Positions 8,424-61,433 of a stretch of DNA of 64,000 nucleotides are shown here, in pieces. This stretch comes from Candidatus Taylorbacteria bacterium RIFCSPHIGHO2_12_FULL_45_16 (GTDB taxonomy: Bacteria; Patescibacteriota; Minisyncoccia; Phycocordibacterales; PALSA-1337). Both the position numbers and the translations under genes were made by a program. Numbering within the stretch: the stretch's first letter is position 1; the number at the start of each line of letters is the position of its first letter. The stretch lies in assembly GCA_001821055.1 (NCBI GenBank), contig MHRT01000005.1, positions 43,533-107,532 of the forward strand, written 5' to 3'. A model generated the notes under the pieces. The model saw only the letters and a program-made list of their open reading frames with translations. It did not search any database and was not told where the DNA came from.

Positions 8424-8528
8424 AGTGGGGGAATTGTATCATGTATGATTGACACGTTCAAATAAGTTGACTTTCTTTGAATTGCCTGTAATGTATTAGA
8501 TAAACAATGTTATTTTGAAAGGAAAATC

Positions 8529-9560
8529 ATGAACAATGAAATTTCAGATCTTCGCGGATGTCTTTCGCAACTGAAGACTCTTCAAGGTCGAAGGCGGTAT
8601 TCTGAATCCGAAGAGGAGGCTACTCATTCGACGATGTTTGTCACCAAGAAAGAGGATGAATTTCTCGTTGACGAGATCAGGATTCTCTGCTCAAAGGCAT
8701 ATCGTCGGTTGACGGGAAAGACGCAAGTAACATGTCTGCCTCGAAATCCGCATATCCGCAACCGCCTTACCCATACCATGGAGGTTGTCGCATGCAGTGT
8801 GAACGTATCGGAAATGCTTGGCCTCAATACGAATCTAGTTCGAGCGATTGCTCTTGGGCACGATCTCGGACATGCTCCATTCGGTCATCCTGGAGAGGCA
8901 TACTTGGCGGAACGGACTGGAAAACCTTACACTCACGAGATCATGGGCGTGGTGCTCGTCCAACATATAGAACGGAGGTGCAAAGGATTGAACCTAACGC
9001 ATGAAGTATTAGATGGCATGATGCGGCATTCCGGAAAAAATGTTTCAGACAGCATGACTCCTGAAGCTTGGGTTGTCAGGTATGCCGATAAGTTCGCCTA
9101 CATTTTTGCTGATTACAACGACTTTATCAGAATGCAATGGAAAGTCGATTCCGAACTAGTTTCGTTGATGAATGACTTTGGCGAAAGCCAACGACAACGT
9201 GTTCTAAAAGTCATATTGGAGCTGGCTCGTGAATCTGCGGTTGAGGGAAAAGTATCATTCGTCAAGTGTGATGTAGCCCAAAAATTCAATCGTCTGCGAG
9301 AGCTCATGTATCATGAGTACCCGAAGGTCACATTGCAGAATCCACACAGGGCTCTTGATCCGATCTATGACTTCGTGGACAGATTGAAAATTGGGGATCC
9401 ACTTCTTATCATCAGTTTGATGACGGATCAGGATGTGAACTATCTATTGCAGCAGTACGCGCTCAATTTTGATCATATCCGTTCTACAGCAGTGGGGGAA
9501 CTTATTGAAGTTATCAAGGACAAGAAAATCGATTGCTGTGATCCGGATTTGGACTGGTAG
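8529..9560 (+). CDS. HD-domain phosphohydrolase, dGTP triphosphohydrolase-like
   Basis: HTMEV...GHDLGHAPFGH HD motif and a D...D motif further downstream. AGGA sequence 8 nt upstream of the ATG. Confidence 0.7.
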   Translation: MNNEISDLRGCLSQLKTLQGRRRYSESEEEATHSTMFVTKKEDEFLVDEIRILCSKAYRRLTGKTQVTCLPRNPHIRNRLTHTMEVVACSVNVSEMLGLNTNLVRAIALGHDLGHAPFGHPGEAYLAERTGKPYTHEIMGVVLVQHIERRCKGLNLTHEVLDGMMRHSGKNVSDSMTPEAWVVRYADKFAYIFADYNDFIRMQWKVDSELVSLMNDFGESQRQRVLKVILELARESAVEGKVSFVKCDVAQKFNRLRELMYHEYPKVTLQNPHRALDPIYDFVDRLKIGDPLLIISLMTDQDVNYLLQQYALNFDHIRSTAVGELIEVIKDKKIDCCDPDLDW

Positions 9561-9578
9561 GGCAAGGACAAAACAAAA

Positions 9579-9608
9579 GGGGCCGAAGTGATTCGGTCCC
9601 GATTTTTT
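9579..9608. terminator. Bidirectional intrinsic terminator between the convergent HD gene and ftsZ
   Basis: GGCCGAAGTGATTCGGTCC hairpin followed by GATTTTTTTATT. Confidence 0.5.
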
Positions 9609-9630
9609 TATTACAGTTATTTATTCCAAC

Positions 9631-10830
9631 CTACTTTAACCTACTCCTCCTCAAAAACGCCGGTATCGCGCCCCAATCATCATCGTCATCCTTTTTCTCT
9701 TCTTTTTTGGCTTCAATTTTTTCGGCGGGACTGGTGTCACGCTTTACATCCGACATTGAATTGAAAATCTTACCGCGTTCTGGACGATCGCCTTTTTCGG
9801 CGACATTTTTCATTATGGAAGCAATGGTTGGTTCGGCTGAAACAGGCGATGAGGAGCGAGCGCCGGCGGTATTGCTTTCTGGAAAACCTGTGGCAATAAC
9901 CGTGATCTTGATCTCGTTTTTCTTGAGTTTATCGTCGCGAACCGTACCAAAGATGATTTTCGCTTCGGGGTCAATAGACTCGGTGATAACCTTGGCGGCA
10001 TCCTGTATTTCAAACATGGTTAGGTCTTCACCACCAGCAATCGAGAACAAGACGCCCTTGGAACCGGTGATGGAAACATCCAAAAGTGGACTGTTGATGG
10101 CCGCCTTGGCGGCCTCAATCGCGCGGTTTTCACCGGAAGCCGAACCGATGCCCATAAGGGCCGAACCGGCATTTTCCATGACGGTGCGGATGTCAGCGAA
10201 GTCAATATTGATGAGTCCTGGCGTGGTGATAAGATCCGAAATGCCTTCAACGGCTTGGCGCAGTATTTCGTCGCACATGGCGAAGGCGTTTTTGACCGTG
10301 GTCTCTTTGCTGATGGCTGAAAGAAGCCGGTCGTTCGGTATGACGATGATGGCGTCTACCTCTTTGCGCAACTCTTCAAGAGCTGCTTCGGCGATACGTG
10401 ACCGCTGGCGTCCTTCAAAGAAAAATGGCTTGGTAATCACGGCCACGGTCAGACAGCCGAGTTCTTTGGCGACTCGAGCTACCATTGGCGCCGCGCCGCT
10501 GCATGTGCCGCCGCCGAGTCCGCCGGCGACGAAGACCATGTCCGCGCCCTTGACGATTTCTTGGATTTCATCGCGGGTTTCTTCAACCGCGCGTTTGCCG
10601 AGCTCCGGATTCATGCCCGTGCCCAATCCTCGGGTGATGTTTTTGCCGATGTGAACTCGTTTTTTGGCCAAAGAACGATGTAGATCTTGGGAGTCGGTGT
10701 TAATTGCGATAAAATCAACGCCTCGGACTTTACTTATAATCATGTGATTGACGGCGTTACCGCCGGAACCACCGACGCCAAGGACTTTGATGCGAGCGAA
10801 TGCTTCGATGTCGGGAGTGATGTTGGGCAT
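9631..10830 (-). CDS. ftsZ: Cell division GTPase FtsZ
   Basis: GGGTGSG tubulin signature (GLGGGTCSGAAPMVA). N-terminal VLGVGGSGGNAVNHM. Acidic C-terminal tail. Confidence 0.95.
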   Translation of the reverse strand: MPNITPDIEAFARIKVLGVGGSGGNAVNHMIISKVRGVDFIAINTDSQDLHRSLAKKRVHIGKNITRGLGTGMNPELGKRAVEETRDEIQEIVKGADMVFVAGGLGGGTCSGAAPMVARVAKELGCLTVAVITKPFFFEGRQRSRIAEAALEELRKEVDAIIVIPNDRLLSAISKETTVKNAFAMCDEILRQAVEGISDLITTPGLINIDFADIRTVMENAGSALMGIGSASGENRAIEAAKAAINSPLLDVSITGSKGVLFSIAGGEDLTMFEIQDAAKVITESIDPEAKIIFGTVRDDKLKKNEIKITVIATGFPESNTAGARSSSPVSAEPTIASIMKNVAEKGDRPERGKIFNSMSDVKRDTSPAEKIEAKKEEKKDDDDDWGAIPAFLRRSRLK

Positions 10831-10976
10831 GGATATAGTTTACGATGAAAGATTAAAAATGAAAAGTGGCTTGTTGGCCACCGGGTATGTTCAAATGGGA
10901 ATGTTCAGACTAACAGTATCATGATAGCAAGTAATGAAAATGGCGCAAGTGTCAGCTTGATTTCAATATAATTATT

Positions 10977-12712: not shown

Positions 12713-12961
12713 TTACTTACGGCCGCCACGTTCTGGCTTGATTTGAGCTTTGCCTTGTTTGACGAGTTCGGCGAGATCGGTCCGGCGTTTTATAAGTTTG
12801 AGGGTGCGTTGTTTGACCTTGTAAGAAGACTGGACGCGCGTGGCAAAACGAAGTTCCCGTTTGCGTTGAATAATACCAGAGCCTTGGACTTTTCGCGTAA
12901 AGCGCCTGATAACGCCCATGGCGTTCTCGTTCGGATTGCGGGTTACTTCTGCGTTTATCAT
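12713..12961 (-). CDS. rpsU: 30S ribosomal protein S21
   Basis: Small basic protein. AEVTRNPNENAMGVIRRFTRK matches the S21 N-terminal pattern. Lies upstream of ybeY. Confidence 0.65.
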   Translation of the reverse strand: MINAEVTRNPNENAMGVIRRFTRKVQGSGIIQRKRELRFATRVQSSYKVKQRTLKLIKRRTDLAELVKQGKAQIKPERGGRK

Positions 12962-13074
12962 AGGTAAGAGATTGTAACATAAGCAGAATAATGAGGCAAG
13001 AAGCTCCTGATGATAGTTTCAACTATCTAAAAGGTTGCATATGAATTCTTTCCAGATTATGCTACTTTATCTCC

Positions 13075-13983
13075 ATGAAACCCAATACCTCATGGGGCGG
13101 AGTTGTCGAATGGTACAACGATCTTTTGGAGCAAGATTCGAACTCATTTCAGAAGAATGTCTTAATGCCCAACTTAATCCGGATAGTTGGGCCAAAAACA
13201 GGCATGAATCTGCTTGATGTCGCTTGTGGTCAGGGATATTTTTCGCGTGCTTTCGCGGCCAATGGGGCGACTGTCATCGGCTGTGACATTTCCCAAGAAT
13301 TGATTGGTAAGGCTCGCGGATTCAAAGATCCAAGAGATGAGGATAAGTCAATGCCGTCAGTTGATTTTTCTAAAAAAGATTTTCAAAAAAGTGGGGCAGG
13401 AAAAGTTGGACCAGTTGTGACCTATAATGTCTCTCCGGCTGACAGACTCTCATTTGCTACCGATTCTTCATTTGACGTGGTGACGATCGTTCTAGCTCTG
13501 CAAAATATTGAAAATCTAGCCGGGACTTTGACCGAATCAGCTCGAGTCCTCAAAAATGGTGGGCGATTGGTTATCGTCGTGAATCATCCCGCATTTCGAA
13601 TTCCGCAAAGATCTGATTGGGGCTGGGATGAAATCAAAAAAAGAAAAGTGGAAATTGCGGGAAAGAAAGAATGGGAAAAGATTGTTGGACCAATTCCCGA
13701 ACAGGTAATGTATCGCCGGCTTGACGGCTATATGTCTGACAGTCGGGTTGAAATAGACATGACGCCGGGAGAAAAAATTACCGCCAAAAAGAAGTTCACG
13801 ATTTCATTCCACCGCCCATTGCAATCATATTTCAAAGCCTTGAGTAAAGCGGGGTTTGCGGTGACACGTCTTGAAGAATGGGTTTCGCACAAAAATAGTC
13901 AAACTGGACCGCGGGCAACCGAAGAAGATCGGATGAGGAAGGAAATCCCGATGTTTTTATGTTTGGAAACCGTGAAATTGTAG
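13075..13983 (+). CDS. Class I SAM-dependent methyltransferase
   Basis: Motif I LLDVACGQGYFS, followed by VIGCDIS and LKNGGRLVIV. Confidence 0.7.
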   Translation: MKPNTSWGGVVEWYNDLLEQDSNSFQKNVLMPNLIRIVGPKTGMNLLDVACGQGYFSRAFAANGATVIGCDISQELIGKARGFKDPRDEDKSMPSVDFSKKDFQKSGAGKVGPVVTYNVSPADRLSFATDSSFDVVTIVLALQNIENLAGTLTESARVLKNGGRLVIVVNHPAFRIPQRSDWGWDEIKKRKVEIAGKKEWEKIVGPIPEQVMYRRLDGYMSDSRVEIDMTPGEKITAKKKFTISFHRPLQSYFKALSKAGFAVTRLEEWVSHKNSQTGPRATEEDRMRKEIPMFLCLETVKL

Positions 13984-16815: not shown

Positions 16816-16946
16816 GGGATTGGTTAAAAGTGTAAAGTCGTTAGGCCACTACTTCTGCACTTTTAACTTTACACTATTTCATTTACTATCGCCATCAAAA
16901 TTACGGTCGCTTTGCATGGCCCATTATTTTCTGCTAAAGTACTCTC

Positions 16947-17234
16947 ATGACCCCAGAAGAACGTTCTTTATTGGAGCGGACGCACAAGCTCACCGAGGAA
17001 AATAATGAAATACTTCGTTCGATCCGTCGAACCAATCGTTTTTCAATGGCCTTGCGTGTCCTTTATTGGGTCATCATTTTGATCGTCAGCTTTGGCGCGT
17101 ACTATCTCATACAGCCCTATGTCGAAAGCCTGATCGGGGCTTATGGAGATATCCAAGGTAGCTTGAATGGAATTCAAGGTAATATAAATGCTACCCAAAG
17201 CGCCGCCGATTCCTTGAGAAGTTTGTTACAGTAG
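16947..17234 (+). CDS. Hypothetical small membrane protein (one TM)
   Basis: ORF lies between two tRNAs. One hydrophobic helix. Confidence 0.35.
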   Translation: MTPEERSLLERTHKLTEENNEILRSIRRTNRFSMALRVLYWVIILIVSFGAYYLIQPYVESLIGAYGDIQGSLNGIQGNINATQSAADSLRSLLQ

Positions 17235-17342: not shown

Positions 17343-17466
17343 CCCACGAAACACATGCGAAATCGTACAATTTCACCCACGAAACATGTTCGAATTTTTT
17401 ATAGATAATAATCTACCTGGTATGTAGTCGCCTTTTTCTTTTGTCAAAATCAACTATAATGAGCAT

Positions 17467-19269
17467 ATGGACCGCACTGTTGTCGAACAAATCAAGGAAC
17501 GATTGACGATCGACGAAGTCGTCAGTCAGTATGTCAAACTGGACAAATCAGGCTCTTCCTACAAAGCCAAGTGCCCATTTCACAATGAAAAGTCCCCGTC
17601 ATTTTTTGTCTCGCCGGATAGAGGCGGGTACTACTGCTTCGGTTGTGGTGCCAAGGGGGACATCTTCACTTTTGTAGAGCAATTTGAAGGACTTGATTTT
17701 CGTGGAGCTTTGAAAATTTTAGCCGAGCGGGCCGGTATCCGATTGACCTTTGACAAAAAGGCTGATGGAGAACGAGACAGACTGTTTGAGGTTATGGATA
17801 CCGCGGCGCATTTTTTTGAGATCCAGTTTGGGCAAAATAAAGAAGTTCAGGAATACGTGAAGAAGCGCGGGATTACGGATTCAACTAGGATTGAATTTCG
17901 AATCGGCTGGGCGCCTGAAGGATGGAGTAATCTGCACTTGTATTTTAAGAAAAAAGGTTTCAATGATTCTCTGATTGAGAAAGCTGGATTGATAAAGAAA
18001 AAAGAGATGAGAGATAAGGGTCATGGCCATGGAGAATCTGATAAAGAAAATCTTACCTCTGATTACTATGACCGTTTCCGTGGTCGGGTAATGTTCCCGA
18101 TTATGGATTCCAGCGGTCGTGTCATTGCATTTTCCGGACGCATCCTGCCACGGCTTGATGATGGCAAAGCGGCCAAGTATTTGAATAGCCCGGACACTCC
18201 TTTGTATGACAAATCACTGGTGCTTTATGGGCTTAATAAAGCCAAAAGCGACATTCGCCGATTGAATTACACGATTATGGTCGAGGGTCAGATGGATCTG
18301 GTCATGTCTCATCAGGCGGGCATAAAAAATACAGTTGCGTCTTCCGGCACGGCTTTGACGGACGAATCATTCAGCGAGACGGGGGCAGTTAGTAATCTCA
18401 ATTTGGTACGCAGACTTTCATCAAATATAATTCTCGCGTTTGATTCAGATAAGGCGGGTAGGATGGCGGCTATGCGCGCTGTTGCAGCCACGGCTATATC
18501 CATGGGTATGGCAGTGAAGATTGCCGATATTGAAGGAGGAAAAGATCCGGCGGACATCGTTCTTCTCAATCCGGATGAATGGAAAAAAATTCTTCGCAAT
18601 GCAAAACATGTCATTGAATATGAACTCAACAACGTCTTGAGGGATGTCACTGATCCTCGCAAAGTCGGACGTGCCGTTAAAGAAAGAATTTTTCCATATC
18701 TTATAAGGATGGATAGTGAAATGGATAAGGCTTTTTATATTAAAATGATTGCCGACAAGACCAATGTTTCTGAGCAAGCTGTTTGGGACGATGTGCGAGC
18801 ATTCGGCAAAACATTCAAGCCGGCTGAATCAGATAAAAAAGCTGAAACTGAAAATAAGAAAATAGAGAGTGGGAATCACATGGATTTAATAGAACGCCGA
18901 ATGTTCGGACTCCTTATTCTCATCGAAAAATCATCTCTGCCAACTGCCACAGAGTATCGCAAACAGATCAAAAAAATTGCCGGTGATTCTTATGCCGACC
19001 GGATCGCCCGAATCGAATCTTTAGCTAGTGATATCATTTTTGAGGCCGAAGCATTTTTCAGCGGAGATCAAAAGAATTGGGATCATCATATGAAGGAACT
19101 CATCATCAACTTCGAGGAAGATGTAATAAATCAAGAGCTCATAACGGCTATGAATGAGCTGAAGACGGCGGAAAAGGCCAGGAACGTTGAAAAAGTAGCC
19201 GAATTAGCCCAAAAGTGCCAGGTTCTGTCGATGCGCAAGGCGGAGGTGGGGAAGAAGAAGCGCGGGTAA
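17467..19269 (+). CDS. dnaG: DNA primase
   Basis: CHC2 zinc finger (CPFHNEKSPSFFVSPDRGGYYCFGCG). TOPRIM region (EGQMD, DSDKAG). TATAAT 6 nt upstream of the ATG. Confidence 0.9.
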   Translation: MDRTVVEQIKERLTIDEVVSQYVKLDKSGSSYKAKCPFHNEKSPSFFVSPDRGGYYCFGCGAKGDIFTFVEQFEGLDFRGALKILAERAGIRLTFDKKADGERDRLFEVMDTAAHFFEIQFGQNKEVQEYVKKRGITDSTRIEFRIGWAPEGWSNLHLYFKKKGFNDSLIEKAGLIKKKEMRDKGHGHGESDKENLTSDYYDRFRGRVMFPIMDSSGRVIAFSGRILPRLDDGKAAKYLNSPDTPLYDKSLVLYGLNKAKSDIRRLNYTIMVEGQMDLVMSHQAGIKNTVASSGTALTDESFSETGAVSNLNLVRRLSSNIILAFDSDKAGRMAAMRAVAATAISMGMAVKIADIEGGKDPADIVLLNPDEWKKILRNAKHVIEYELNNVLRDVTDPRKVGRAVKERIFPYLIRMDSEMDKAFYIKMIADKTNVSEQAVWDDVRAFGKTFKPAESDKKAETENKKIESGNHMDLIERRMFGLLILIEKSSLPTATEYRKQIKKIAGDSYADRIARIESLASDIIFEAEAFFSGDQKNWDHHMKELIINFEEDVINQELITAMNELKTAEKARNVEKVAELAQKCQVLSMRKAEVGKKKRG

Positions 19270-19340: not shown

Positions 19341-20627
19341 ATGAGTAAAACCAAGAAGGGGGCCAACAAGAAGGCTCGTAAATCAGCCGGGCGTTCAGTG
19401 AAGCGCGCTTCTTTTCGTATCAAGAACCATTCGTCTAAGGCTTCCAAAGGCCGATCAAAGTCGGCTGGCAATGCCAAATCCAGCGGTAAAGGCGATGGCT
19501 CAAGCAAGCTGGGAAAGAATGGAAAGCCGATGTCAAAGATCGATAAAGCCAAGGATTTTGAAGTCCGCGCCACCAAGCTCATCAACCGTGGTCGTGATCG
19601 CGGCTTTGTGACATATGACGAGATTCTCAAGGAATTCCCTCAGATTGAGAATAACATTATTTTTCTTGACGACCTCTATAGCAAATTCACTTCCGCCAAT
19701 GTTGATGTTCTAGAAGGTGGCGGTTTGCTTGAAATAGAGGATCTGAATCCAAAGAAAGTCGCCACGCACTATTCCCGCACCGGCGCCGATTCGGCATACG
19801 ATTCTATCCAGATGTATTTGAAAGAGATTGGCCAATATCCGCTCATCACCGCATCCGACGAAAAAGATTTGGCAAAGCGTATTCAGGTCGGAGATACCGA
19901 GGCCAAGAATTTGTTGGCTAAAGCCAACTTGCGTCTGGTGGTTTCAATTGCCAAAAAATATGTCGGTCGTAGCCCCGACCTGACTCTTTTGGATCTTATC
20001 CAAGAAGGCAACCTCGGCCTTTTCCGCGCCGTTGATAAGTTTGATTGGACGAAAGGATACAAATTTTCAACCTATGCTACTTGGTGGATTCGCCAAGCCA
20101 TCACTCGGGCTCTGGCTGACCAATCTCGCACCATTCGCGTGCCGGTGCACATGGTGGAGACTATTGCCAAATACAAACAAGTCGTCCGCCGTCTGTCACA
20201 CGATCTCGGCCGAGAGCCGTTGCCAGATGAGATTGCTATGGAGATGGGTCTGGACGTGGAAAAAATATACCAGATTGAAAAAATCGAGCAGGATGTCGTG
20301 TCGCTCGAAAATCCCGTAGGTGACGACGGTGATGACGGCAAATCCACGCTTCAAGATTTCATTCCCGACGACAAGATCCTTTCTCCGGATCAGGAATCTT
20401 CACGCCGCATCCTCCGCGACCAAGTCAATATGATCCTCGGCGACCTCTCCGAAAAGGAACGCAAGATTCTGGAGATGCGTCATGGTTTGATGGATGGCAT
20501 CACCCACACTCTGGAAGAAGTTGGCCGTGAATTCGGCGTGACCCGCGAACGTATCCGTCAGATCGAGGCCAAAGCTCATGAGAAGATCAGGCAGCATGAG
20601 AAGATAGGGCAGTTGAAGAATTATTAG
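19341..20627 (+). CDS. rpoD: Primary RNA polymerase sigma factor (sigma-70 family) with a Lys/Ser-rich basic N-terminal extension
   Basis: Region 2 ([18 protein letters not shown]...[13 protein letters not shown]), region 3 and region 4 ([18 protein letters not shown]). Confidence 0.9.
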
Positions 20628-26542: not shown

Positions 26543-27868
26543 TTATCTCCTGATAATTTTGACAACCTCATCCTCGTCACCCTCCACCTCCTCACCACTC
26601 TCCAAGACCCTCATCCTCAACTTTCCATTCTTGACCTCCTCATCGCCAATGCAGATAACTCTTGGAATCCTCCGTTTATCGGCATTCTTGATCTGGTCAC
26701 CAAGTCTTTTGTTCGATAAATCAACCGCAACTCGGATGCCTTTTTCACGGAATGTCTGCGCTAAGTCCAATGCATATGGAGTATTTTGTTCTCCAACTAT
26801 ACACAACGCCAAATCAGCTGATGCAGGAATGCCGCCAAGCTCACCCCGCTTCGGAAGCGTTCCATAAGTCTCCATCAAATCACGGGCGATGACATCACCC
26901 GCGCCAAAACCAACCGCGGGGACTTTTTCGTTGCCGAAAAGCGCCAGCAGGTCGTCATAGCGTCCACCGCCGAATATTGAACGACGATTGGCCGGATTCA
27001 AATCGTAAATTTCAAACACAATGCCGGTGTAATAATCAAAGCCGCGCATCAGAGTCTGATCGAATCTCACATTCGTAATACCGAGATGCTCAAGTCCGGC
27101 AATAATCTCGCGAATTTCTTTGATGCCGACATGTTCATCAGCTGTCTGTGGTAATTGCTTGGTCAACTCCTCAAAGTTTTTTGAATTGAGCAATATCAAA
27201 AATTGCTTGGTCTTGTCGCCAAGAACTTCCGTTGCGGCGGCTTCGAACCACTCTGGCTTGACCTTGTCTTTTTTGTCGATCAGTTTGGAAATTTTTTGTG
27301 CGGCATTTTCATCCAGATTGAAGATGTCCCTTGTCAGGTAGTTCATAAGCTTGCGGTTATTGACCCGAATTTCAAAATCGGCGTCCTTCAATCCATACAT
27401 TCGGGTAATGTCGTACGCGATATTGATAACCTCGATTTCGGCGGTTGTGGATTCTACCCCGAACAAATCGACGTTCAGCTGCCAATGTTCACGGACTCGT
27501 CCTCTCTGTGGCTGTTCGTATCGAAAAAGGTTGGGGATGGAATACCAGCGCAACGGATACAAAAGTTCGCGCTTGCGGGCTGCCACCATTCGTGCCAAGC
27601 TTGGCGTCATCTCCGGACGAAGAGTAACTTCGCGGTCGCCTCGGTCGGTGAATGTGTAGGTCTGTTCATTGACGATCTCTTCGCCGGTCTTCGCTCTATA
27701 GAGTTCGGCCGGTTCCAAGACTGATGCGCCATACTCTTCATACCCATACTTTTCAACTGTATTCCTCCAAATATCAAAAATCTTCTTTTCTACGGCCATA
27801 TCGGCGGGGAAGAAATCTCGGACGCCCTTGTAGGCGTCGGTTGATAGTTTTTTCATTTCGTTTGACAT
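26543..27868 (-). CDS. hisS: Histidine--tRNA ligase
   Basis: Class II aaRS motifs, LRPEMTPSLARMVA and the HisRS-specific WYSIPNLFRYEQPQRGRVREHWQLNVDLFG. TACAAT 8 nt upstream of the ATG. Confidence 0.9.
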   Translation of the reverse strand: MSNEMKKLSTDAYKGVRDFFPADMAVEKKIFDIWRNTVEKYGYEEYGASVLEPAELYRAKTGEEIVNEQTYTFTDRGDREVTLRPEMTPSLARMVAARKRELLYPLRWYSIPNLFRYEQPQRGRVREHWQLNVDLFGVESTTAEIEVINIAYDITRMYGLKDADFEIRVNNRKLMNYLTRDIFNLDENAAQKISKLIDKKDKVKPEWFEAAATEVLGDKTKQFLILLNSKNFEELTKQLPQTADEHVGIKEIREIIAGLEHLGITNVRFDQTLMRGFDYYTGIVFEIYDLNPANRRSIFGGGRYDDLLALFGNEKVPAVGFGAGDVIARDLMETYGTLPKRGELGGIPASADLALCIVGEQNTPYALDLAQTFREKGIRVAVDLSNKRLGDQIKNADKRRIPRVICIGDEEVKNGKLRMRVLESGEEVEGDEDEVVKIIRR

Positions 27869-28054
27869 AGAGGTATTGTAGCAAATTATAGGGGAAGTGT
27901 AATAGGGTTTAAGAGTAGGCGACACAGTATGTGATATATTTGTTGACGCAGAATTTTCTAAAGCCTTGACTTTTGTCTTATTTCAGTATACAATCCTATC
28001 ATATAAACCAATAAGAGCATCTTTCCTTTTTTATGGCTTATTTAAGCCATATCA

Positions 28055-32048: not shown

Positions 32049-32219
32049 GGATAATACTATAGCAACTTTTTGTCAGGCGAGGGAGTGGGTTGACATACTA
32101 TTATTATTATGCTAGTAATTATACGGGTTGTTCTCAACAACTGAAACGATCATATTTCCCCCAAAAACTTAAAGTAAGGGAAGCTTGGTCACAACAAAAA
32201 CAACAAACAACGGTAAGCT

Positions 32220-33377: not shown

Positions 33378-33389
33378 TAAGGAGGAAAT

Positions 33390-33665
33390 ATGAGTCAAAA
33401 ACTTACGATTGAAGAGTTCACTCTTCTTGCGGTAGATAAACTACCCAAGGGTGATAAACAGATGATTCATACCGTTTACTCTGGCTTCAACGAAGCTTTC
33501 CGGGAGTATTTTCCTGGCAAGGATCCTGTTGCTGAAGTTAACCAACTGGCCAAAGAAGGGAAAATCAGTTTCCGACTGTGTCGGGGTGGGGCGATCATCG
33601 CCAAGCCCGGGGTAATCGAATCAGTACCGAAATCAAAGGACACCTTACAGAAGATGGGCGTTTAA
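33390..33665 (+). CDS. 91 aa hypothetical protein, co-transcribed partner of the DGQHR-like gene
   Basis: Starts 13 nt after the upstream stop, preceded by AGGAGG. A terminator follows directly. Confidence 0.4.
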   Translation: MSQKLTIEEFTLLAVDKLPKGDKQMIHTVYSGFNEAFREYFPGKDPVAEVNQLAKEGKISFRLCRGGAIIAKPGVIESVPKSKDTLQKMGV

Positions 33666-33724: not shown

Positions 33725-33750
33725 TCCCACTTTCCCCTTATACTTATCCC

Positions 33751-34874: not shown

Positions 34875-34883
34875 GTCCTGACT

Positions 34884-36025: not shown

Positions 36026-36127
36026 TTAGCAATTTTAACTTTTAATTGATAAAAAAACCACCGAGTCTGACTCGGTGAAAATTGAAGAAGTGGAAATACT
36101 ACAGAAAATTAAAGTTAATAGCAAATC

Positions 36128-37507: not shown

Positions 37508-37622
37508 GTGAAGATTGTAACATGGGTGATAGAATGGAAAAATATTATCAATTTAAAAAAGAGGGGAAAAGATGTGGAGAAATATATTAGCAGACTCCAC
37601 TTATTGTCAACTATATTAAGAT

Positions 37623-40841: not shown

Positions 40842-40865
40842 TTGAGTCATGGTACGATGTAGAAG

Positions 40866-42580: not shown

Positions 42581-44467
42581 CTAAATCTTAAGCATGGCCA
42601 ATAATTCAACAAGCTTGATGGTAGCGACGCCAACCACGCTGTCGGCGCCTCCATAATAAATGTATACGACGCCTCCTCGCACAACCAGACCACACGGAAA
42701 AACCACATTTTGGATACTGCCGAGACGTTCATAGTCTTCTTCTGGTTCAAAAAAGGGGATTGCCGTGCGCGCCAAAACTATCGTCGGATCCTCAAAATCA
42801 AGAAGTATGGCTCCGACGCGATATATTGCGCTCCACGAGACGCCATGATACAGCATAAGCCAGCCCTTTGGGGTTCTTACCGGCGGTGTCGAGATACCAA
42901 CCTTGAGGCCATCCCACATGCCCTTGCGTGGTGATAACATTTCTATACAGCGCGTGATTTTTTCTCGTGAGAAGTCCAACGAAGCGATAAAATCCGCGCA
43001 AATACTTTCGTGTACCCTATGGAAGACAAGATATTTTTCGTTGACGGCCTCGGGGAGAATGGTGGCGTCTTTATTGTCCACATCCATGGGCGTGATAATC
43101 TCTGGCGCTCTCCAAGCGCTCCATTTTTTCTTGAGGAATTCATCGCTACCGATGGAGGTTACCGCTACGCGTGGCACTATACCGTCATACGCGGTATATG
43201 TCATGAAAATACGTCTATCAATGAGTATGACGCGTGGATCTTCACAGCCGCGAAGCTCAAACTCAAGACGAGGCCGGTAGATTGGTTTGTTTGATCGTTC
43301 GTCTATGCTAAATCCGTCGCTTGATGACGCGTATCCAATACTCGAAATATTGTCATCTGATACCGCACGATATAAAATGTGAGTTTTATTTCCTAAATCT
43401 ATGGCGGCGGGATTGAATGTGCCTCTAGCTTCCCAAAGGACACCAGCTCTAGGGGCGATGATTGGATTGCCTTTAAAGCGGCGCAGTGGAGACTGATTAT
43501 TCATATTGATATTGAGGCCATTCAATAAAGAATCAAGTGGGATGGTTGCGACGGCGCCATAGGAATCCGCGGCACCATAATAAATTTCAAGGTGTTCACC
43601 ACGGATGAGCGCGCCTGAAGGGAATATTGTGTGTGGCACCTGTCCGACATGTTCATAATACGCTTCGGGCACCATGAAAGGGCCTTTCGTACTCCCGATG
43701 ATTTTTTTTGGATCTTGCGCGTCAAGTAATAGCGTTTCAATGCCGAAAACATGGTCTGGCCGGTCATATCGTTGTATATGAGAATAGACAAAGAGCCATC
43801 CTTTATCTGTCTTTACTGGCACGGCACCCAATTCAATATGATCATCAAGGCGTCTGCGGATATTCAGTTTGTGCTCGTCAAGATTTTTGTACCATTCATT
43901 CCAATAATCGGCCGACCAGATATCTTCCGGCTTATTGAATTCAATGAAGCAAATGTCGGAAGGTTTGCGGTCGGTATTTACGGTGACGAGTGCGGCAAGC
44001 TTGCCATTTATTTTTTCCGGGAAAAGAGCCATAGCTTTGGCGTTGAACGGCGTGACCAAGTGTTTCTCCGTGATAGTCTTCAAGTCCTCACTCAGAGCAA
44101 CGGCAACTTTTATGTTGTCAACTGAAAACGGATATCCACCAAGTCCGGTATAGAAAATGTAATAGGTCTTGCCGATTTTGGTTACGCGCGGATCTTCACA
44201 GCCGTAACGATCAAAATCCGCGTCGGGAGAAATCAAGATTGAGCGATTTTCATAGTGGACGCCGTCTTTTGAATCGGCTCGCGCGATGACGGACATGCGT
44301 ATGTGCGGCTCTTTGAGAAGTTCCGGGTCCGACATGGCCCGATATACAAGCGTAGTTTTGCGTCCTTGAATAATCGGACAAGGATTGAAAGCGGCCGCCG
44401 ATTCCCATGAATGTTCTCGGAGCGGAGAGAGTATCGGATTATGTAGGAAGCGGGTGACTGTAAACAT
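42581..44467 (-). CDS. Tandem-domain GH130 (DUF377) glycoside phosphorylase/hydrolase-like protein
   Basis: Two repeats of the GH130 signature (NPILSP...ESAAAFNPCPI...LVYRA and NPIIAPRAGVLWEARGTFNPAAI...ILYRA). GCEDPRV motifs in both halves. Confidence 0.75.
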   Translation of the reverse strand: MFTVTRFLHNPILSPLREHSWESAAAFNPCPIIQGRKTTLVYRAMSDPELLKEPHIRMSVIARADSKDGVHYENRSILISPDADFDRYGCEDPRVTKIGKTYYIFYTGLGGYPFSVDNIKVAVALSEDLKTITEKHLVTPFNAKAMALFPEKINGKLAALVTVNTDRKPSDICFIEFNKPEDIWSADYWNEWYKNLDEHKLNIRRRLDDHIELGAVPVKTDKGWLFVYSHIQRYDRPDHVFGIETLLLDAQDPKKIIGSTKGPFMVPEAYYEHVGQVPHTIFPSGALIRGEHLEIYYGAADSYGAVATIPLDSLLNGLNINMNNQSPLRRFKGNPIIAPRAGVLWEARGTFNPAAIDLGNKTHILYRAVSDDNISSIGYASSSDGFSIDERSNKPIYRPRLEFELRGCEDPRVILIDRRIFMTYTAYDGIVPRVAVTSIGSDEFLKKKWSAWRAPEIITPMDVDNKDATILPEAVNEKYLVFHRVHESICADFIASLDFSREKITRCIEMLSPRKGMWDGLKVGISTPPVRTPKGWLMLYHGVSWSAIYRVGAILLDFEDPTIVLARTAIPFFEPEEDYERLGSIQNVVFPCGLVVRGGVVYIYYGGADSVVGVATIKLVELLAMLKI

Positions 44468-44479
44468 CGAAATAGTATA

Positions 44480-45634
44480 TCACACGACATTTTCTTGACC
44501 GGTATGTTTGCCGTATGTCACCAACCAATCCAACAAAACATCAAGTGGAGTTTGTGCTATGCAGACATGCCTATCGCCACCGCCGTAATAGACGAGCAAT
44601 TGGCCGTCGCGTACGATGGCGCCAGATGCATAAACAATGCCCGGTTTGCCATCGTTCTCATAGCACATGTCCGGAGTCAGTATCGGTTCCGGCGCGCGAT
44701 ACAAGATTCGCGTCGGGTCGTTGGCATCCAAGATCATCGCGCCAAGTTTGTATTTGTGAAATTCTTTTCTATCCACTGCGTGATACAAAAGCAACCAACC
44801 TCGGTTGGTTTTTATCGGCGGTGGACCGGCACCACGCAAGATATTATCCCAAAATCCTTCACGGCCGGGTTGAGGCCCTTGCGGACGGGAGCTCTTGATG
44901 TGAGGAAATGTCTCATCCAAATCGTCCACGTATTCAATCATTATTTTCGGAACAATACCATGCAATATGGCGTATTTACCATTGACTTTTTCTGGAAAAA
45001 GTACCCAGTTTTTGTGGACTTCGTCGGGAGGCGATATGAGTCTAGGCTTCTTCCAATTCCACCGCTCTTTTTTCAAATCTTTGACGGCGATTGAGGTAAG
45101 TCCGATGCGTACCGAACCCCAGCCTTGGAAAGCGGTATAAGTCATGTAAACGCGACTGCCGATTTTCACGGCACGAGGATCTTCGTGGCCACCCCAGCCG
45201 CCGCCGGATGTGTATATGGCGGGATTGTATTGAGCGGGACCTGAAGATTTTTTTTCAGAGGGATTTTTTTCTTCAACATGTGGCTGATATACTGGGAAAG
45301 GCGAACGCCTATCAAAGTTCATGCCGTCTATGCTTGAGGCGTGTCCGATATTAGAAAGTCCGTTGTTTCCGATTGCCCGATACAGCAGATGAACGCGTCC
45401 CTCATCGTCTTCTATCGCCGTCGGATTGAATGTGCCGTTGGTTTCCCATTCTTGATGTGGTCGCGGTGACATTATGGGATTCGCGTGGTGGCGTTTTATC
45501 TTATGACTAACAGGAGCGTCGCCTTCCTCCCGTTTTTTTCTTAACAAAATAAGATAACAGACAATTCCGATGACGATTACTATCGCAAGAGACAGTGCGG
45601 TGACAAATATGATGTGGTCAGTTGTAATGTTCAT
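44480..45634 (-). CDS. GH130 (DUF377) beta-mannoside phosphorylase-like protein with an N-terminal TM anchor
   Basis: TM helix followed by NPIMSP...GTFNPTAI...LLYRA, and HEDPRAV. Confidence 0.75.
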   Translation of the reverse strand: MNITTDHIIFVTALSLAIVIVIGIVCYLILLRKKREEGDAPVSHKIKRHHANPIMSPRPHQEWETNGTFNPTAIEDDEGRVHLLYRAIGNNGLSNIGHASSIDGMNFDRRSPFPVYQPHVEEKNPSEKKSSGPAQYNPAIYTSGGGWGGHEDPRAVKIGSRVYMTYTAFQGWGSVRIGLTSIAVKDLKKERWNWKKPRLISPPDEVHKNWVLFPEKVNGKYAILHGIVPKIMIEYVDDLDETFPHIKSSRPQGPQPGREGFWDNILRGAGPPPIKTNRGWLLLYHAVDRKEFHKYKLGAMILDANDPTRILYRAPEPILTPDMCYENDGKPGIVYASGAIVRDGQLLVYYGGGDRHVCIAQTPLDVLLDWLVTYGKHTGQENVV

Positions 45635-46418: not shown

Positions 46419-46448
46419 TTGACATCCTATACCCCCTAGGGGTATCAT
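46419..46448 (+). promoter_or_regulatory. csoR-cop promoter (TTGACA-18-TATCAT) overlapping a near-perfect palindrome, ATACCCCCTAGGGGTAT (46429-46445), taken to be the CsoR operator
   Basis: Core CCCCTAGGGG is a perfect palindrome flanked by ATAC/GTAT. It resembles known GC-rich CsoR operators. ATG at 46455, 6 nt after the -10. Confidence 0.6.
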
Positions 46449-46454
46449 GTAGGC

Positions 46455-46721
46455 ATGAGACAATATATCAAAACAAAAGCTATTCGCCGATTAAAAATTG
46501 TTGAGGGACAAATTAGGGGACTTCAAAATATGGTTGAAGATGAGAAGTACTGTATCGATATTATTACCCAGGCATCTGCTATTAAAGAAGCCCTTACAGG
46601 AATTGAGAACTTGGTCCTTGAAAACCATCTTTCTACCCACGTAGTTCACCAGATGAAGCATGGAAGTGAAAAGAAAGCTGTTGATGAGATCCTTAAGGTT
46701 TATAAGCTAAAGCGTAAATAA
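46455..46721 (+). CDS. csoR: CsoR/RcnR-family copper-sensing transcriptional repressor
   Basis: RLKRIEGQIRGLQNMVEDEKYCIDIITQ...H...H pattern of the CsoR (DUF156) family. Confidence 0.8.
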   Translation: MRQYIKTKAIRRLKIVEGQIRGLQNMVEDEKYCIDIITQASAIKEALTGIENLVLENHLSTHVVHQMKHGSEKKAVDEILKVYKLKRK

Positions 46722-51769: not shown

Positions 51770-52354
51770 ATGGTAAATTCATATTACATGGAACGTTCTG
51801 ATGAACAATTAATTTCCGAGTATCTTGATGGCGATGAAAAGGCGCTAGGTACACTTGTCGAACGGCATCTAACTAATGCCTACAATTTTGCATTGAAACT
51901 CGTGAATGATAGTCAGGCCGCAAATGACATAACTCAAGAGGCATTCGTTAAAGCGTGGAAAAATATCCGAGGATTTAAGCAAGAAAGCACTTTTCAGACG
52001 TGGCTTTTTGCAATCACCAGAAATGTCGCAATCGACTGGCTTAGACGAAGAAAAGAAGTTGTCTTTTCTGCTTTTGAAAATGAACGAGGAGAAAATATGT
52101 TCACTGAAACTCTTGCAGACCAGAGCTTGTTGTCGGATGAACTGTTAGCAAGAGCAGAAGATGTTCGGTTTGTAGAAATACTTTTGGAAGAACTTGATCC
52201 TCTCTACCGCGATGTATTGAAACTTCGATATTCAAGCAATATGACATTTGAGGAGATTGGTGAACTTCTTAAGAGGCCACTTCACACAATTAAAAGCCAG
52301 TATAGAAGGGCGCTCATTGCATTACGCCGATCTCTTGAAGTAAGGCCGATTTAA
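51770..52354 (+). CDS. ECF-subfamily RNA polymerase sigma factor (sigma-70 regions 2 and 4)
   Basis: Region 2 (AYNFALKLVNDSQAANDITQEAFVKAWKNI...FQTWLFAITRNVAIDWLRRR). Region 4 HTH (TFEEIGELLKRPLHTIKSQ). Confidence 0.8.
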   Translation: MVNSYYMERSDEQLISEYLDGDEKALGTLVERHLTNAYNFALKLVNDSQAANDITQEAFVKAWKNIRGFKQESTFQTWLFAITRNVAIDWLRRRKEVVFSAFENERGENMFTETLADQSLLSDELLARAEDVRFVEILLEELDPLYRDVLKLRYSSNMTFEEIGELLKRPLHTIKSQYRRALIALRRSLEVRPI

Positions 52355-57221: not shown

Positions 57222-57338
57222 ATGATTTCAAGCTTTTGTTTATGACTTGAATATGCAAAATGTACCATATCCCACTTCGTAAATCAAAACGCGTTCGGGA
57301 TTATTTCCCTGGAAGAAGAAAGCTGGTATACTGATCGC

Positions 57339-57716
57339 ATGAATACACATATCAAAACAACCAATATCGCATTGACGGACGCTATTTCAGATTATGTGAA
57401 CAAGCGTCTTTTGAAAATCGAAAAGCTTACGAATGGCGACTCTTCGGCACAGTGTGATGTTGAACTTGCCCGCACCACGACGCACCACAACAAAGGTGAA
57501 GTATTTCGCGCCGAGATACATCTAGTGGGCGCCGCTGGACTCAATATTTATACCAGCATTGAAAGAGAGGACTTATACACCGCGATTGACGAGGTCCGTG
57601 ATGCCGTAATCCGTGAATTTACCGGCAATCGTAAAAAGAAAATGTCTCGCATTCGTCGCGGCGGGGCGCGTATCAAAGAGATGGTGAAAGGTATGTGGCC
57701 GTGGCGTAGAAATTAA
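57339..57716 (+). CDS. hpf: Ribosome hibernation promoting factor (RaiA/YfiA family)
   Basis: MNTHIKTTNIALTDAISDYVNKRLLKIEK...FRAEIHL pattern of ribosome-associated inhibitor A. TATACT 6 nt upstream of the ATG. Confidence 0.8.
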   Translation: MNTHIKTTNIALTDAISDYVNKRLLKIEKLTNGDSSAQCDVELARTTTHHNKGEVFRAEIHLVGAAGLNIYTSIEREDLYTAIDEVRDAVIREFTGNRKKKMSRIRRGGARIKEMVKGMWPWRRN

Positions 57717-58853: not shown

Positions 58854-59383
58854 TTCTTTTCTTGTAGTTTTTTAATTTCTTCCTCGCTCATTTCCCAGAC
58901 ATGGTCGGCCTTGTCTGTGAATAGGATACCATCCAGATGGTCGGTTTCGTGCTGGAATATTTGAGCCAAGATGCCACTGGCGCCGCGCTCGATCTTCCGG
59001 CCTTTTTCATCATAGGCACTGATCATAATGCGAGTGGAGCGTTTGACTTTCCCATAAAGCCATCGAACCGACAGACAACCCTCTTCCATTTCCTTCCTAT
59101 CTTTTGAAAGTTTGAGAATTTCAGGATTGATGAAAACCAGATTTGTGTTTTCTCCTTTGTATGTCTTGTCCGCCTGCTTGAGTAGACTGCCGGAGATGAC
59201 GAATATACGGAGTGACACGCCGATTTGCGGGGCGGCGATAGCGATACCGTCCTTTTGTTTCGCCATGGCTTTGGCCATTTCAGAGATAATGGATTGGATT
59301 TTGGGTGAACTAATCTCTGAAACAGGCACAGTTCTGGCTTTTTGGCGCAGGATGGGGCTGTCACGCTGGATAATGTCTTTCAT
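58850..59383 (-). CDS. def: Peptide deformylase
   Basis: Motifs GIAIAAPQIG, EGCLSV and HETDHLDG. Confidence 0.9.
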   Translation of the reverse strand: MKDIIQRDSPILRQKARTVPVSEISSPKIQSIISEMAKAMAKQKDGIAIAAPQIGVSLRIFVISGSLLKQADKTYKGENTNLVFINPEILKLSKDRKEMEEGCLSVRWLYGKVKRSTRIMISAYDEKGRKIERGASGILAQIFQHETDHLDGILFTDKADHVWEMSEEEIKKLQEKN

Positions 59384-59425
59384 GAGGAAACTGTAACATG
59401 GAAAGTGTCATTGGTAAATTGTCCG

Positions 59426-61363
59426 TCACAACAAACTCTCTGGATTGACTTTGACCTTTACATTCGGCGGTAGACTACGCAGTTTTTCCATGAGATTGGA
59501 GTTTGGCCAGCCGCCTTCGGGAAGTTTGATAAGTCCATGGATGATTGAATTGCCGCGGACTGTGGCAGTAAAGGCTGGAAAGATGTCTATCTCTTGAGGC
59601 TCCAGAAGCGCTTGCACATCCGCCATATGGCGAGCGATGCAGTCTTTTTTTCCTTCTATGGTTATCTTTATCAGTGTGAAAAAAGGAGGATATGAAAATT
59701 GTTTGCGTTCTTCGAGGATGGATCGGTAAAAATCACTCAAATTACCTTTGAGACCGTACTCAAAAATCTTTTCTTCGGCTTTTCTCGTTTGTATCAAGAT
59801 GGAGCGGTTGGCCACATTGCGCAAGCGGGTGATGACATACATGATTTTTTCTTGGATCCGAAAATCCGGTAGCGCGAACAATGAGTCAAGTGACGCGATG
59901 GCGACATAGTCGACTTTTTCGGTAAGATGGACAAGGGTCATTTCTGTGCCGAGCAATATGCTCCCCGGTTTAGCTCGGAATTTTTCCATGACCAATCCTA
60001 TTTGCGCGCTTGTTTTCGTGGTATCGGTGTCTATTTTGAATATGTCGATATTTGGAAATTCGGATTGAATTTCTTCACGCACACGGTCTATACCAATGCC
60101 CAACGGCGTCAATCTCCAGCTATCGCAGTTTTTGCATTTTTCGTTCGCGTCACTTCGCTCGCCACAAATGTGGCACATGAAGAAATTCTTGCCTGAATCT
60201 TTTGATGTATGCAGAACCACCGGCGTTGAACATTTTGTGCACAGAACTATTGTTTCACAATCGCTGCAGACCGTGATTGGCGAAAGACCGCGGCGCGTGG
60301 TAAGGATGAACAAGTGGGCGCTTGATTCTTGGTTTATGACGATGAGATCTTTTAGTTCCGGCGAAAGGATATGGAAGGGGACGGGAGAAGGGAGATTCTG
60401 TTGGTCGATCTTTTTTCGCTTCATATTGACTAAAATATCTTTTGCGTTTGATACGGATCTCCATTTGAATGGCGAGCCTTGGGCTACCTCATGCGTATCT
60501 ATACGATAAAGTGTCTCGACGCGCAACAGGCTATCGGCTCGGTATACCGTCTGTTTTTGCCTTCGGGCGATAGTTTCTAGCGCTTGACGGATATCCAAAT
60601 ATGGTTGTTTTTGTCCAATCCAACCGCGAGAGTTTTCGCGTTCTATGATGATCGTATCTATATCGGCGCGCGGTAATATGGAAAATGAACCGGTCGCGAC
60701 AATGACAACCGGATGATTGATTTCAGAGATGTTGTTCCAAGTATTTATCACTTGTTTCTTCGTATGTTTACCGTGTAGAGTGAATATATAACCTTCAATT
60801 CCTTTGGTTAATGCCGTGAATATAGTTTCCACGTCTTCAATAGTCGGAGCGTATATAGCCACGGATCTCTTGCGAGCGAATTCTTGGCGGATGAGGCTAC
60901 GCCATGATCCGAACCTGTCTTCGTCGTCGCCTTGTATGGCGTAGGTTTCATCAATCGCCGGCGTGTTTTTCGTTTCATTAAAAAATTGGTTTTGTCTTAC
61001 GGGGACAACAATCTTATGCGCATTCTCCATAAGTTCGTCCGATATTAACGTGTCCATGACGGAGCCGATGCTGGTGGCGTAATATTCGGCCAGAACTTTG
61101 CAGGTTTCCATGAAAGAGACGGGAAAGAACGCTGTGGCCTTTATTCTCCCTAGTTTTTTAAGTTGGAATGTTGAGTCTTTAATCTCGCTTTTCATGTCGA
61201 TCGCCGAGCGGATATTGACGACAATGGCGTGAATATTTTTTAAGCGAAGTGGAACGGAAACGATTGCGCCTATTGGCACTTCCGAAGAGGTGAAATAGGA
61301 GAGCTCCCCGGCGACTTTCAAGCGAGTTAGGGGAATGACGGTGATGATGCTGAGCGGTTTCAT
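59426..61363 (-). CDS. priA: Primosomal protein N' (PriA helicase)
   Basis: Helicase core plus a Cys-rich zinc-binding insert (C..C...C..C...C..C...C..C). Conserved priA-def-fmt order. Confidence 0.85.
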   Translation of the reverse strand: MKPLSIITVIPLTRLKVAGELSYFTSSEVPIGAIVSVPLRLKNIHAIVVNIRSAIDMKSEIKDSTFQLKKLGRIKATAFFPVSFMETCKVLAEYYATSIGSVMDTLISDELMENAHKIVVPVRQNQFFNETKNTPAIDETYAIQGDDEDRFGSWRSLIRQEFARKRSVAIYAPTIEDVETIFTALTKGIEGYIFTLHGKHTKKQVINTWNNISEINHPVVIVATGSFSILPRADIDTIIIERENSRGWIGQKQPYLDIRQALETIARRQKQTVYRADSLLRVETLYRIDTHEVAQGSPFKWRSVSNAKDILVNMKRKKIDQQNLPSPVPFHILSPELKDLIVINQESSAHLFILTTRRGLSPITVCSDCETIVLCTKCSTPVVLHTSKDSGKNFFMCHICGERSDANEKCKNCDSWRLTPLGIGIDRVREEIQSEFPNIDIFKIDTDTTKTSAQIGLVMEKFRAKPGSILLGTEMTLVHLTEKVDYVAIASLDSLFALPDFRIQEKIMYVITRLRNVANRSILIQTRKAEEKIFEYGLKGNLSDFYRSILEERKQFSYPPFFTLIKITIEGKKDCIARHMADVQALLEPQEIDIFPAFTATVRGNSIIHGLIKLPEGGWPNSNLMEKLRSLPPNVKVKVNPESLL

Positions 61364-61433
61364 TGGTCTATTTATACTCTTTATTGACCTATTTGTTAAA
61401 TCCTCCCAAAAACATTACAATAACTGTCTATAT

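Follow-up and report, generated by a model that had tools for sequence, protein, structure and literature searches.

Sigma-70 promoters set against start codons point to leaderless, Shine-Dalgarno-independent genes in a Candidatus Taylorbacteria genome

Introduction

Among the start-site patterns distinguished by GeneMarkS-2, group C is the one in which a Pribnow box lies 6-8 nucleotides (nt) from the starts of first genes and 25-50% of transcription units are predicted or measured to be leaderless, and it is found mainly in Actinobacteria and Deinococcus-Thermus (PMC6028130). Here we analyse a stretch of 64,000 nt from a groundwater genome, that of Candidatus Taylorbacteria bacterium RIFCSPHIGHO2_12_FULL_45_16 (Patescibacteriota; contig MHRT01000005.1 of assembly GCA_001821055.1, positions 43,533 to 107,532 of the forward strand), referred to throughout as the window and numbered from its first letter, in which a TATAAT-like -10 hexamer stands a few nucleotides before the start codons of many genes. 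The window has a GC content of ~46%, with six tRNA genes and ~57 protein genes judged credible. Our results make it very probable that its genes follow a leaderless architecture independent of Shine-Dalgarno (SD) sequences, in which sigma-70 promoters are set so that the A of the ATG becomes the first transcribed base at ~40-45% of transcription units. Judged from its sequence, the window extends a group C-like leaderless architecture to a new lineage, in which the SD sites that normally accompany it are missing.

The likeness to the group C genomes (Mycobacterium tuberculosis, M. smegmatis, Streptomyces, Corynebacterium, Deinococcus deserti) lies in the Pribnow box 6-8 nt before first genes and in the start codon at +1, which is predicted here. 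However, the remaining genes of group C genomes carry SD sites, whereas here SD sequences occur at or below chance, and those genomes are mostly high-GC, in contrast to a window of 46% GC whose promoters are dominated by the extended -10 element (TGn). The archaeal group D (Haloferax volcanii, Sulfolobus solfataricus) likewise has a promoter at a fixed distance from the first cistron's start, with leaderless initiation as the main mode, and in haloarchaea SD sequences are weak or dispensable for the other genes. The group D promoter, however, is a TATA box with a B recognition element ~26 nt upstream that is read by TBP/TFB, whereas the element here is a sigma-70 -10 box at 6-7 nt. The group B pattern of Bacteroidetes, with its A-rich, Kozak-like contexts, resembles the non-leaderless starts of the window, which are A-rich, G-poor and depleted of SD sequences, but group B mRNAs are mostly leadered and carry the motif before internal genes as well, whereas here a large predicted leaderless class is added. 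Lastly, the TGnTAnAnT consensus and the weak -35 boxes recall the extended -10 (TGnTATAAT) sigma-70/SigA promoters of Firmicutes, although those normally drive leadered, SD-bearing mRNAs and the starts predicted here are leaderless and SD-free.

A ribosome-side explanation for missing SD sequences is offered by the anti-SD loss described in a subgroup of Parcubacteria, which belongs to the same broad lineage (Tsurumaki et al. 2022, PMC9297842). In that study the anti-SD motif went undetected in about half of Parcubacteria, and protein bS1 of the Candidate Phyla Radiation (CPR) was found to be shortened (PMC9297842). The study examined rRNA and ribosomal proteins, not mRNA starts, and leaderless mRNAs are unmentioned there. 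In the full-text literature we found no description of leaderless mRNAs or of mRNA-level SD usage in Patescibacteria; most subscription journals lie outside this coverage, which leaves novelty unproven.

Results and Discussion

A hexamer at a fixed distance from start codons

Gene identities were assigned by NCBIfam and Pfam scans, and the gene models are our own except in the annotated flanks of the window. Spacing denotes the number of nucleotides between the -10 hexamer and the start codon. In an uncurated set comprising the first start codon of every non-overlapping open reading frame (ORF) of at least 60 residues (n = 64), 13 ORFs have TANNNT at spacing 6 and five have it at spacing 7, while every other spacing from 0 to 54 has a count of 0-4; the expectation per position is 0.9 from the window-wide background and 1.5 from intergenic DNA. 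The peak at 6-7 nt thus stands ~10-fold above background, and the profile is flat at 996 internal ATGs, which together with the window-wide and intergenic TANNNT frequencies served as background controls. After correction of the starts (n = 57 genes) the hexamer is present at spacing 6 in 13 genes (binomial P = 5e-10) and at spacing 5-9 in 21. The start codon is ATG in 20 of these 21 candidates, as would follow if the ribosome takes the start codon itself as its main signal. A Pribnow box ~6-8 nt upstream of first-gene start codons, as in group C, is therefore what the window displays.

The original prediction had named such hexamers at dnaG, rplU, csoR, hpf, hisS, thrS, dnaB, an rmuC-like gene, priA and trxB, and all ten are present. 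Its spacings hold for dnaG (6), rplU (9), csoR (6), hpf (6), dnaB (6), the rmuC-like gene (6) and priA (7), but those of hisS (6, not 8), thrS (7, not 8) and trxB (9, not 11) had to be revised. The three -35 boxes that it listed were also found, at rplU (TTGCGC, 16-nt spacer), csoR (TTGACA, 18-nt spacer) and trxB (TTGAAC, 17-nt spacer). A generic scan for -35/-10 consensus pairs recovered csoR and hisS but returned 45 sites vs 28 expected; its specificity was too low, since the -35 boxes are weak in most of these promoters, and the spacing profiles were used instead. Longest-ORF models at 29484-30205 (-), 12717-13022, 16820-17005 and 39612-40102 were dropped as probably spurious.

Hexamers of this kind could arise as chance matches in AT-rich intergenic DNA, where TANNNT is indeed ~1.7-fold commoner (0.023 per position) than in the window as a whole (0.014), and ~6 of the 57 genes would have one at spacing 5-9 by chance. 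Such matches do not predict a sharp peak at a single position (P ~5e-10), nor the co-occurrence of TGn (P ~1e-12), the C at position -1, the conservation in orthologues or the recurrence outside the window, all described below, and we assign this explanation a vanishingly small probability. The positional profile thereby refutes, for the window, the objection foreseen with the original prediction that the hexamer would be no more frequent than an AT-rich background allows.

Promoter character of the hexamer

The extended -10 dinucleotide TG precedes 14 of the 21 hexamers, where ~6% would be expected (P = 1e-12). A matrix anchored on 27 sites reads T26 A26 (T/C/A) A21 (A/C/G) T26, with T and G in 20/27 at both TG positions, and a -35 block T-T-(T/G) lies 17-18 nt upstream of the hexamer (T17/T17/T12-G10 of 27). 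The window also encodes the housekeeping sigma-70 factor RpoD (19341..20627, + strand; regions 1.1, 1.2, 2, 3 and 4), whose segments for recognition of the -10, extended -10 (VPVHMVET) and -35 elements differ very little from their E. coli sigma-70 counterparts. The extended -10 is read by His and Glu residues of sigma region 3.0, which are conserved in the window RpoD. All parts of a sigma-70 extended -10 system are thus found together: TGn, a TTG ~17 nt upstream and an RpoD with region 3.0.

On both strands the window contains 145 TGNTANNNT sites, 27 of which have an ATG at 5-9 nt vs ~12 expected, and 15 of these 27 ATGs open ORFs of at least 80 residues, mostly gene starts. The same TGnTAnnnT, or TATACT, is found 16-43 nt upstream of the mature 5' end of five of the six tRNA genes, at 2313-2387 (-), 6486-6574 (-), 6701-6773 (+), 17269-17346 (+) and 57148-57221 (-). 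The motif therefore also serves untranslated genes, where its distance is variable, and it is fixed at 6-7 nt only at protein genes. The upstream regions of tRNA genes allow the organism's promoter consensus to be read independently.

The base before the start codon is C in 9 of the 13 spacing-6 genes and a pyrimidine in 11 of them, vs C in 4 of 36 other genes. In E. coli, a Y(-1)R(+1)Y(+2) element determines where transcription begins in 93% of cases if its centre lies 7 bp past the -10 box (PMC12641261). At spacing 6 the A of the ATG is the seventh base after the -10 box, and C(-1)A(+1)T(+2) is such a Y-R-Y element. From the -10 spacing, the Y-R-Y context and established promoter biology we infer that the A of the ATG is the transcription start, or a base 2-4 nt upstream of it where the spacing is 8-9.

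A motif this close to start codons could instead act within a normal 5' untranslated region as a non-SD ribosome-binding or translation-enhancer sequence, like that of the Bacteroidetes group B, with transcription starting further upstream. A lineage lacking SD sequences could need another mRNA signal, AT-rich elements near starts can bind protein S1, and the distance of the motif overlaps that of ribosome-binding sites (PMC6028130). However, group B motifs precede all genes, first and internal alike, whereas the hexamer at 5-9 nt is found at 18 of 41 operon-leading genes (those that diverge from the upstream neighbour or lie 40 nt or more from it) but at only 3 of 16 internal ones. A translation signal also does not fit with the sigma-specific TGn and the -35 element at 17 nt, with the occurrence of the motif upstream of tRNA genes at variable distances, or with the Y-R-Y centred 7 nt downstream of it, and most of these genes show no sign of another promoter further upstream. 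We regard a group B-like signal as very improbable and read the hexamer as part of a promoter rather than as a signal for translation.

The proposed mechanism would then run as follows. RNA polymerase holoenzyme with the housekeeping sigma would use promoters of the form TTGnnn, ~17 nt, TGnTAnAnT, whose -10 box ends 6-7 nt, sometimes 8-9 nt, before the ATG at ~40-45% of transcription units. C(-1)A(+1)T(+2) is favoured for initiation when it lies 7 nt past the -10 box, so transcription would start on the A of the ATG and produce an mRNA without a 5' leader, or with one of at most ~4 nt. The ribosome and initiator tRNA would bind the 5'-terminal AUG directly, without SD pairing, as leaderless translation in other bacteria suggests. 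Leadered first genes and internal operon genes would rely on SD-independent initiation on unstructured, A-rich RNA and on termination-reinitiation coupling.

Support for the start codons

The argument requires that the start codons be correct, and an alternate explanation is that the promoters are real but the starts are misannotated, or transcription starts are imprecise, such that the mRNAs have ordinary short leaders and are translated from a downstream codon. This receives some support from the 8-9 nt spacings and from errors of the longest-ORF starts at rplU, at hisS and in several orthologues of dnaB. In each of these cases, however, correction brought the start to the ATG that the -10 box precedes; the N-terminus of rplU, MQFAVIATGGKQ, starts at 34884 and that of hisS at 27868. 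Profile hidden Markov models begin at residues 1-3 of several of the proteins (model residue to protein residue: dnaG 2 to 3, hpf 1 to 1, def 2 to 2, mreB 2 to 3, trxB 3 to 1; for csoR, 6 to 8), N-termini are conserved among orthologues, and the downstream ATGs lack an SD sequence or any other signal. Independent annotation by NCBI/JGI uses the same start codons for trxB, ftsZ, a 170-residue gene, hpf, def, priA and mreB. The start codons of the candidates are thus supported, and we consider the wrong-start explanation quite improbable.

Extent of the leaderless class

The hexamer precedes 18 of the 41 operon-leading genes, or 19 with the TATAAA of priA (44-46%), and the leaderless share after subtraction of chance matches is ~40%. 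It recurs outside the window: in ~19 kb of the same contig past the window ends, which brings the genome sampled to ~83 kb, TANNNT lies at 6-8 nt in 6 of 17 annotated genes. These are PrsW (TATAAT at 6), PBP2 (TGcTACTAT at 6), a second mreB-like gene (TGaTACTCT at 6), an aspS-like gene (TAAACT at 6), pheS (TGcTAAAGT at 7) and a class II aminoacyl-tRNA synthetase (TATTAT at 8). The predicted leaderless starts, at 18-19/41 in the window and 6/17 outside, fall within the ~25-50% of transcription units typical of group C. Many other operon-leading genes have the promoter motif further upstream, for example a DsbA-like gene (27 nt), frr (31 nt), a 124-residue gene (37 nt) and greA (40 nt), and these would have short SD-less leaders.

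Several points weigh against the leaderless interpretation or narrow it. The pattern is not seen at more than half of the operon-leading genes. Some ~11% of non-leaderless genes would be expected to have a TANNNT at 5-9 nt, and with chance matches removed about 16-17 of the 21 candidates would be genuine. Individual weak cases are uncertain, among them an MFS gene (TATCTT, 5 nt), recR (TAAAAT) and ftsZ (TAAACT), all of which lack TGn. Two starts, at 51788 and 12961, were selected by the -10 box itself. The 8-9 nt spacings of trxB, rplU and mreB probably correspond to leaders of 0-4 nt, so that these genes would not be strictly leaderless. The claim that leaderless initiation is the dominant mode at operon-leading genes is accordingly slightly strong at ~40-46%, although the leaderless reading itself was supported by every sequence-level test.

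Shine-Dalgarno sequences

GGAG, GAGG or AGGA occurs at -17 to -7 (3-14 nt from the start codon) in 6 of the 57 window genes vs ~12% by chance, and in the whole window the observed and expected counts from composition are 91/94 for GGAGG, 113/112 for AGGAG and 28/26 for AGGAGG. A pool of 105 ATG starts outside the leaderless class, taken from the window together with 13 related loci, contains GGAG not once in the upstream 20 nt, with GAGG at 0.43-fold and AGGA at 0.67-fold of background; A makes up 50-58% of the bases from -6 to -3 and G 5-10% from -7 to -1. Internal window genes frequently begin within or just past the end of the gene upstream (gaps to its stop codon of -4, 2, 3 and 6 nt). Starts that are A-rich, G-poor and SD-less, together with the overlapping stop and start codons, suggest SD-independent initiation and termination-reinitiation. 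The claim that SD sequences are rare is thus borne out, at or below chance in the window and related loci, and in contrast to group C the remaining genes, internal or leadered, carry SD sites at about the frequency expected by chance.

It had further been proposed that clear SD sequences are mostly seen on internal operon genes, with the ORF at 33390 and an HD gene at 8529 as examples. The two sites exist: AGGAGG lies 4-5 nt before ATG 33390 (33372..33392, + strand) and is the only strong SD-like site at a window gene start, and AGGA precedes the HD gene. The HD gene, however, leads its operon, and both sites are compatible with chance; only one of the 28 AGGAGG copies (26 expected) is at a gene start, and we rejected the two sites as proof of SD use at internal genes. 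The HD gene also has a -10-like TGtTATTTT 12 nt from its ATG, which would place the AGGA at or before the 5' end of the transcript.

No 16S rRNA gene was found in the window or in 84 related loci, and an Rfam scan of the window returned only the six tRNAs. A tie between the SD-free mRNAs described here and the reported loss of the anti-SD sequence seems plausible from the shared lineage.

Conservation in relatives

Relatives were collected by a DnaB-based scan of a genome collection, which gave 80 loci; ~20 kb was sampled per relative, and the taxon labels of some are unreliable. A -10 box, mostly with TGn, lies 6-9 nt before the ATG of dnaB in ~20 Patescibacteria orthologues, down to ~48% protein identity, while the spacer sequence varies, and in three of them the box marks a downstream ATG as the real start. 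In several of the closest rplU orthologues the -10 box stands exactly 9 nt from the start, mostly with 'gACT ATG' conserved, which suggests a 3-nt leader; the rplU mRNA of the window would thus probably begin with ACU. For the rmuC-like gene the box is kept at 6-8 nt in nine orthologues, and it is also kept, in close or more distant relatives, for hisS, thrS, recR, the GH130 gene, mreB, priA and a 343-residue gene.

The proposed scan of start codons for -10 against SD enrichment gave, over the window and loci L004-L017, a -10 peak at 6-7 nt and no positional SD peak. For the relatives, all in-frame ATGs within the first 40 codons were pooled. The Parcubacteria-like loci L004-L017 have 42 TANNNT at spacing 6 vs a background of ~9 (P ~1e-15) and no SD peak, L018-L031 have 22 vs ~8 and a modest SD peak, the loci named Saccharibacteria or Saccharimonadales have 22 at spacing 7 vs ~5 and a clear SD peak, and non-CPR loci have no TANNNT peak and an SD peak. 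In L001-L017, TGn accompanies 46% of the spacing-6/7 hexamers vs 9% of hexamers further upstream, and G occupies position -1 in only 2 of 81. The leaderless component thus appears, from the spacing-7 peak, to extend into Saccharibacteria beside SD use, where leaderless and SD-led starts seem to coexist. In four Saccharibacteria loci (L032, L034, L038, L039) dnaB follows another gene and is preceded by an GGCGGAGGAGAAGAAG-type SD sequence.

A wider proposal, which we put forward only tentatively, is that a large part of the Parcubacteria/Paceibacteria has given up SD/anti-SD pairing and may use two SD-independent routes, leaderless first cistrons and A-rich or reinitiation starts elsewhere, which would have co-evolved with loss of the anti-SD tail, loss of uL1 and a shortened bS1. 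If SD pairing was abandoned clade-wide, this would be the clearest bacterial counterpart of the haloarchaeal logic of initiation. The starts described here would in any case be the mRNA-side counterpart to the reported anti-SD loss and the reduced ribosomes of Parcubacteria, and they would bring a deep-branching, low-GC bacterial lineage into the debate on whether leaderless initiation is ancestral. There are practical consequences as well. Gene callers that expect SD sequences mis-set starts in these genomes, where the -10 box marks the correct ATG, and a -10-to-ATG rule would improve the annotation of thousands of metagenome-assembled CPR genomes. The same rule suggests a design for promoters and starts in Patescibacteria genetic tools: TTGnnn, 17 nt, TGnTAnAnT, 5 nt, C, ATG.

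Individual promoter-start modules

Most of the modules have a 6-nt spacing. On the plus strand these are dnaG (17467-19269; module 17452..17469, TATAAT at 17455-17460, ATG 17467), a methyltransferase gene (13060..13077, TGcTACTTT, ATG 13075), a 95-residue ORF (16932..16949, TGcTAAAGT, ATG 16947), the weak RmuC-like gene (33751-34842; 33736..33753, TATACT, ATG 33751), csoR (46455-46721; 46419..46457, TTGACA, 18 nt, TATCAT at 46443-46448, ATG 46455) and hpf (57339-57716; 57324..57341, TGgTATACT, ATG 57339). On the minus strand they are ftsZ (9631-10830; 10828..10845, TAAACT, ATG 10830, identical to the NCBI start), hisS (26543-27868; 27866..27883, TGcTACAAT), which starts at ATG 27868 and not at the upstream GTG 27925 and has the same layout in the orthologue at locus L001, recR (35333-36025; 36023..36040, TAAAAT, ATG 36025), dnaB (36128-37507; 37505..37522, TGtTACAAT, ATG 37507), a GH130 gene encoding a beta-1,2-mannobiose phosphorylase-like protein (42581-44467; 44465..44482, TGaTATACT, ATG 44467) and def (58850-59383; 59381..59398, TGtTACAGT, ATG 59383).

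A 7-nt spacing is found at thrS (30294-32048, -; 32046..32064, TGcTATAGT, ATG 32048), at priA (59426-61363, -; 61361..61379, TATAAA, ATG 61363), which has a -35 box TTAACA 17 nt upstream, and at the 343-residue gene (40850..40868, +; TGgTACGAT, ATG 40866), whose promoter is an internal one 24 nt past the upstream gene. It is also the spacing of the 170-residue gene (5011..5029, -; TGcTAGACT), which starts with GTG 5013 and is the sole non-ATG leaderless candidate. Its start reads 'ATGTGA': an ATG two bases upstream and an immediate stop form a start-stop pair that overlaps the GTG. Spacings of 8 nt occur at mreB (62837-63850, +; 62820..62839, TGcTATAGT, ATG 62837) and at a 188-residue gene (51771..51790, +; TGgTAAATT, ATG 51788), and 9 nt separate the hexamer from the start of trxB (7506-8423, -; 8421..8441, TGaTACAAT, ATG 8423, identical to the NCBI start), with a -35 box TTGAAC 17 nt upstream, of rplU (34884-35201, +; 34847..34886, TTGCGC, 16 nt, TATAAT at 34869-34874, ATG 34884) and of an 82-residue ORF (12959..12979, -; TGtTACAAT, ATG 12961). 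The starts of the 188- and 82-residue ORFs were picked by the -10 box only.

Small ORFs and additional promoters

Two short ORFs have the same layout. At 46114-46245 (+), in the 434-nt gap from a cupin gene to csoR, a perfect TGaTATAAT stands 6 nt before the ATG of a 38-residue ORF, METVVLIIIVFAILFYSSRPKSDKKEVGKGDRNKEVKR, with one hydrophobic helix and a basic tail, which is a candidate for a small, leaderless membrane protein that has escaped annotation. Near the 3' end of this ORF, 9 nt before a 13-codon ORF, is a perfect AAGGAGGTGA. At 3572-3637 (-), TGcTATACT stands 6 nt before ATG 3622 of the 16-codon ORF MILTKLRHRCLLIEVL, whose TGA stop overlaps, as ATGA, the ATG of a PGA_cap-domain gene (2481-3575). 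Such an arrangement resembles a leaderless mini-ORF upstream of the PGA_cap gene and coupled to it by termination-reinitiation. For the PGA_cap gene, NCBI and JGI annotate different and shorter starts.

Other promoters of good quality are not placed against a start codon. Beside the leaderless promoter of dnaB, a second near-consensus promoter (TTGACA, 18 nt, TATATT; 37581-37610, -) lies ~70 nt upstream of the ATG, so that dnaB could have two promoters, or the region could be a terminator/promoter segment that it shares with the 644-residue gene upstream. One of the best full promoters of the window (TTGACA, 18 nt, TGaTATACT, 11/12 matches) is found at 29488-30290 (+), where it is followed by ~800 nt of GC-rich sequence with plus-strand ORFs, e.g. 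29790-30128 (112 residues), and AAGGA/AAAGG before ATGs. An Rfam scan gave no match in this stretch, a possible piece of foreign or mobile DNA carrying leadered genes. The region 39797-40155 (+) contains a TTG-started ORF of 101 residues that gave no family match. It also has a TTGACA, 17 nt, TGcTAGCAT promoter, followed by a ~50-nt SD-less leader and a 71-residue ORF (MRNMTSAHQGH...), apparently a small membrane protein, that ends at a strong terminator (40134-40155).

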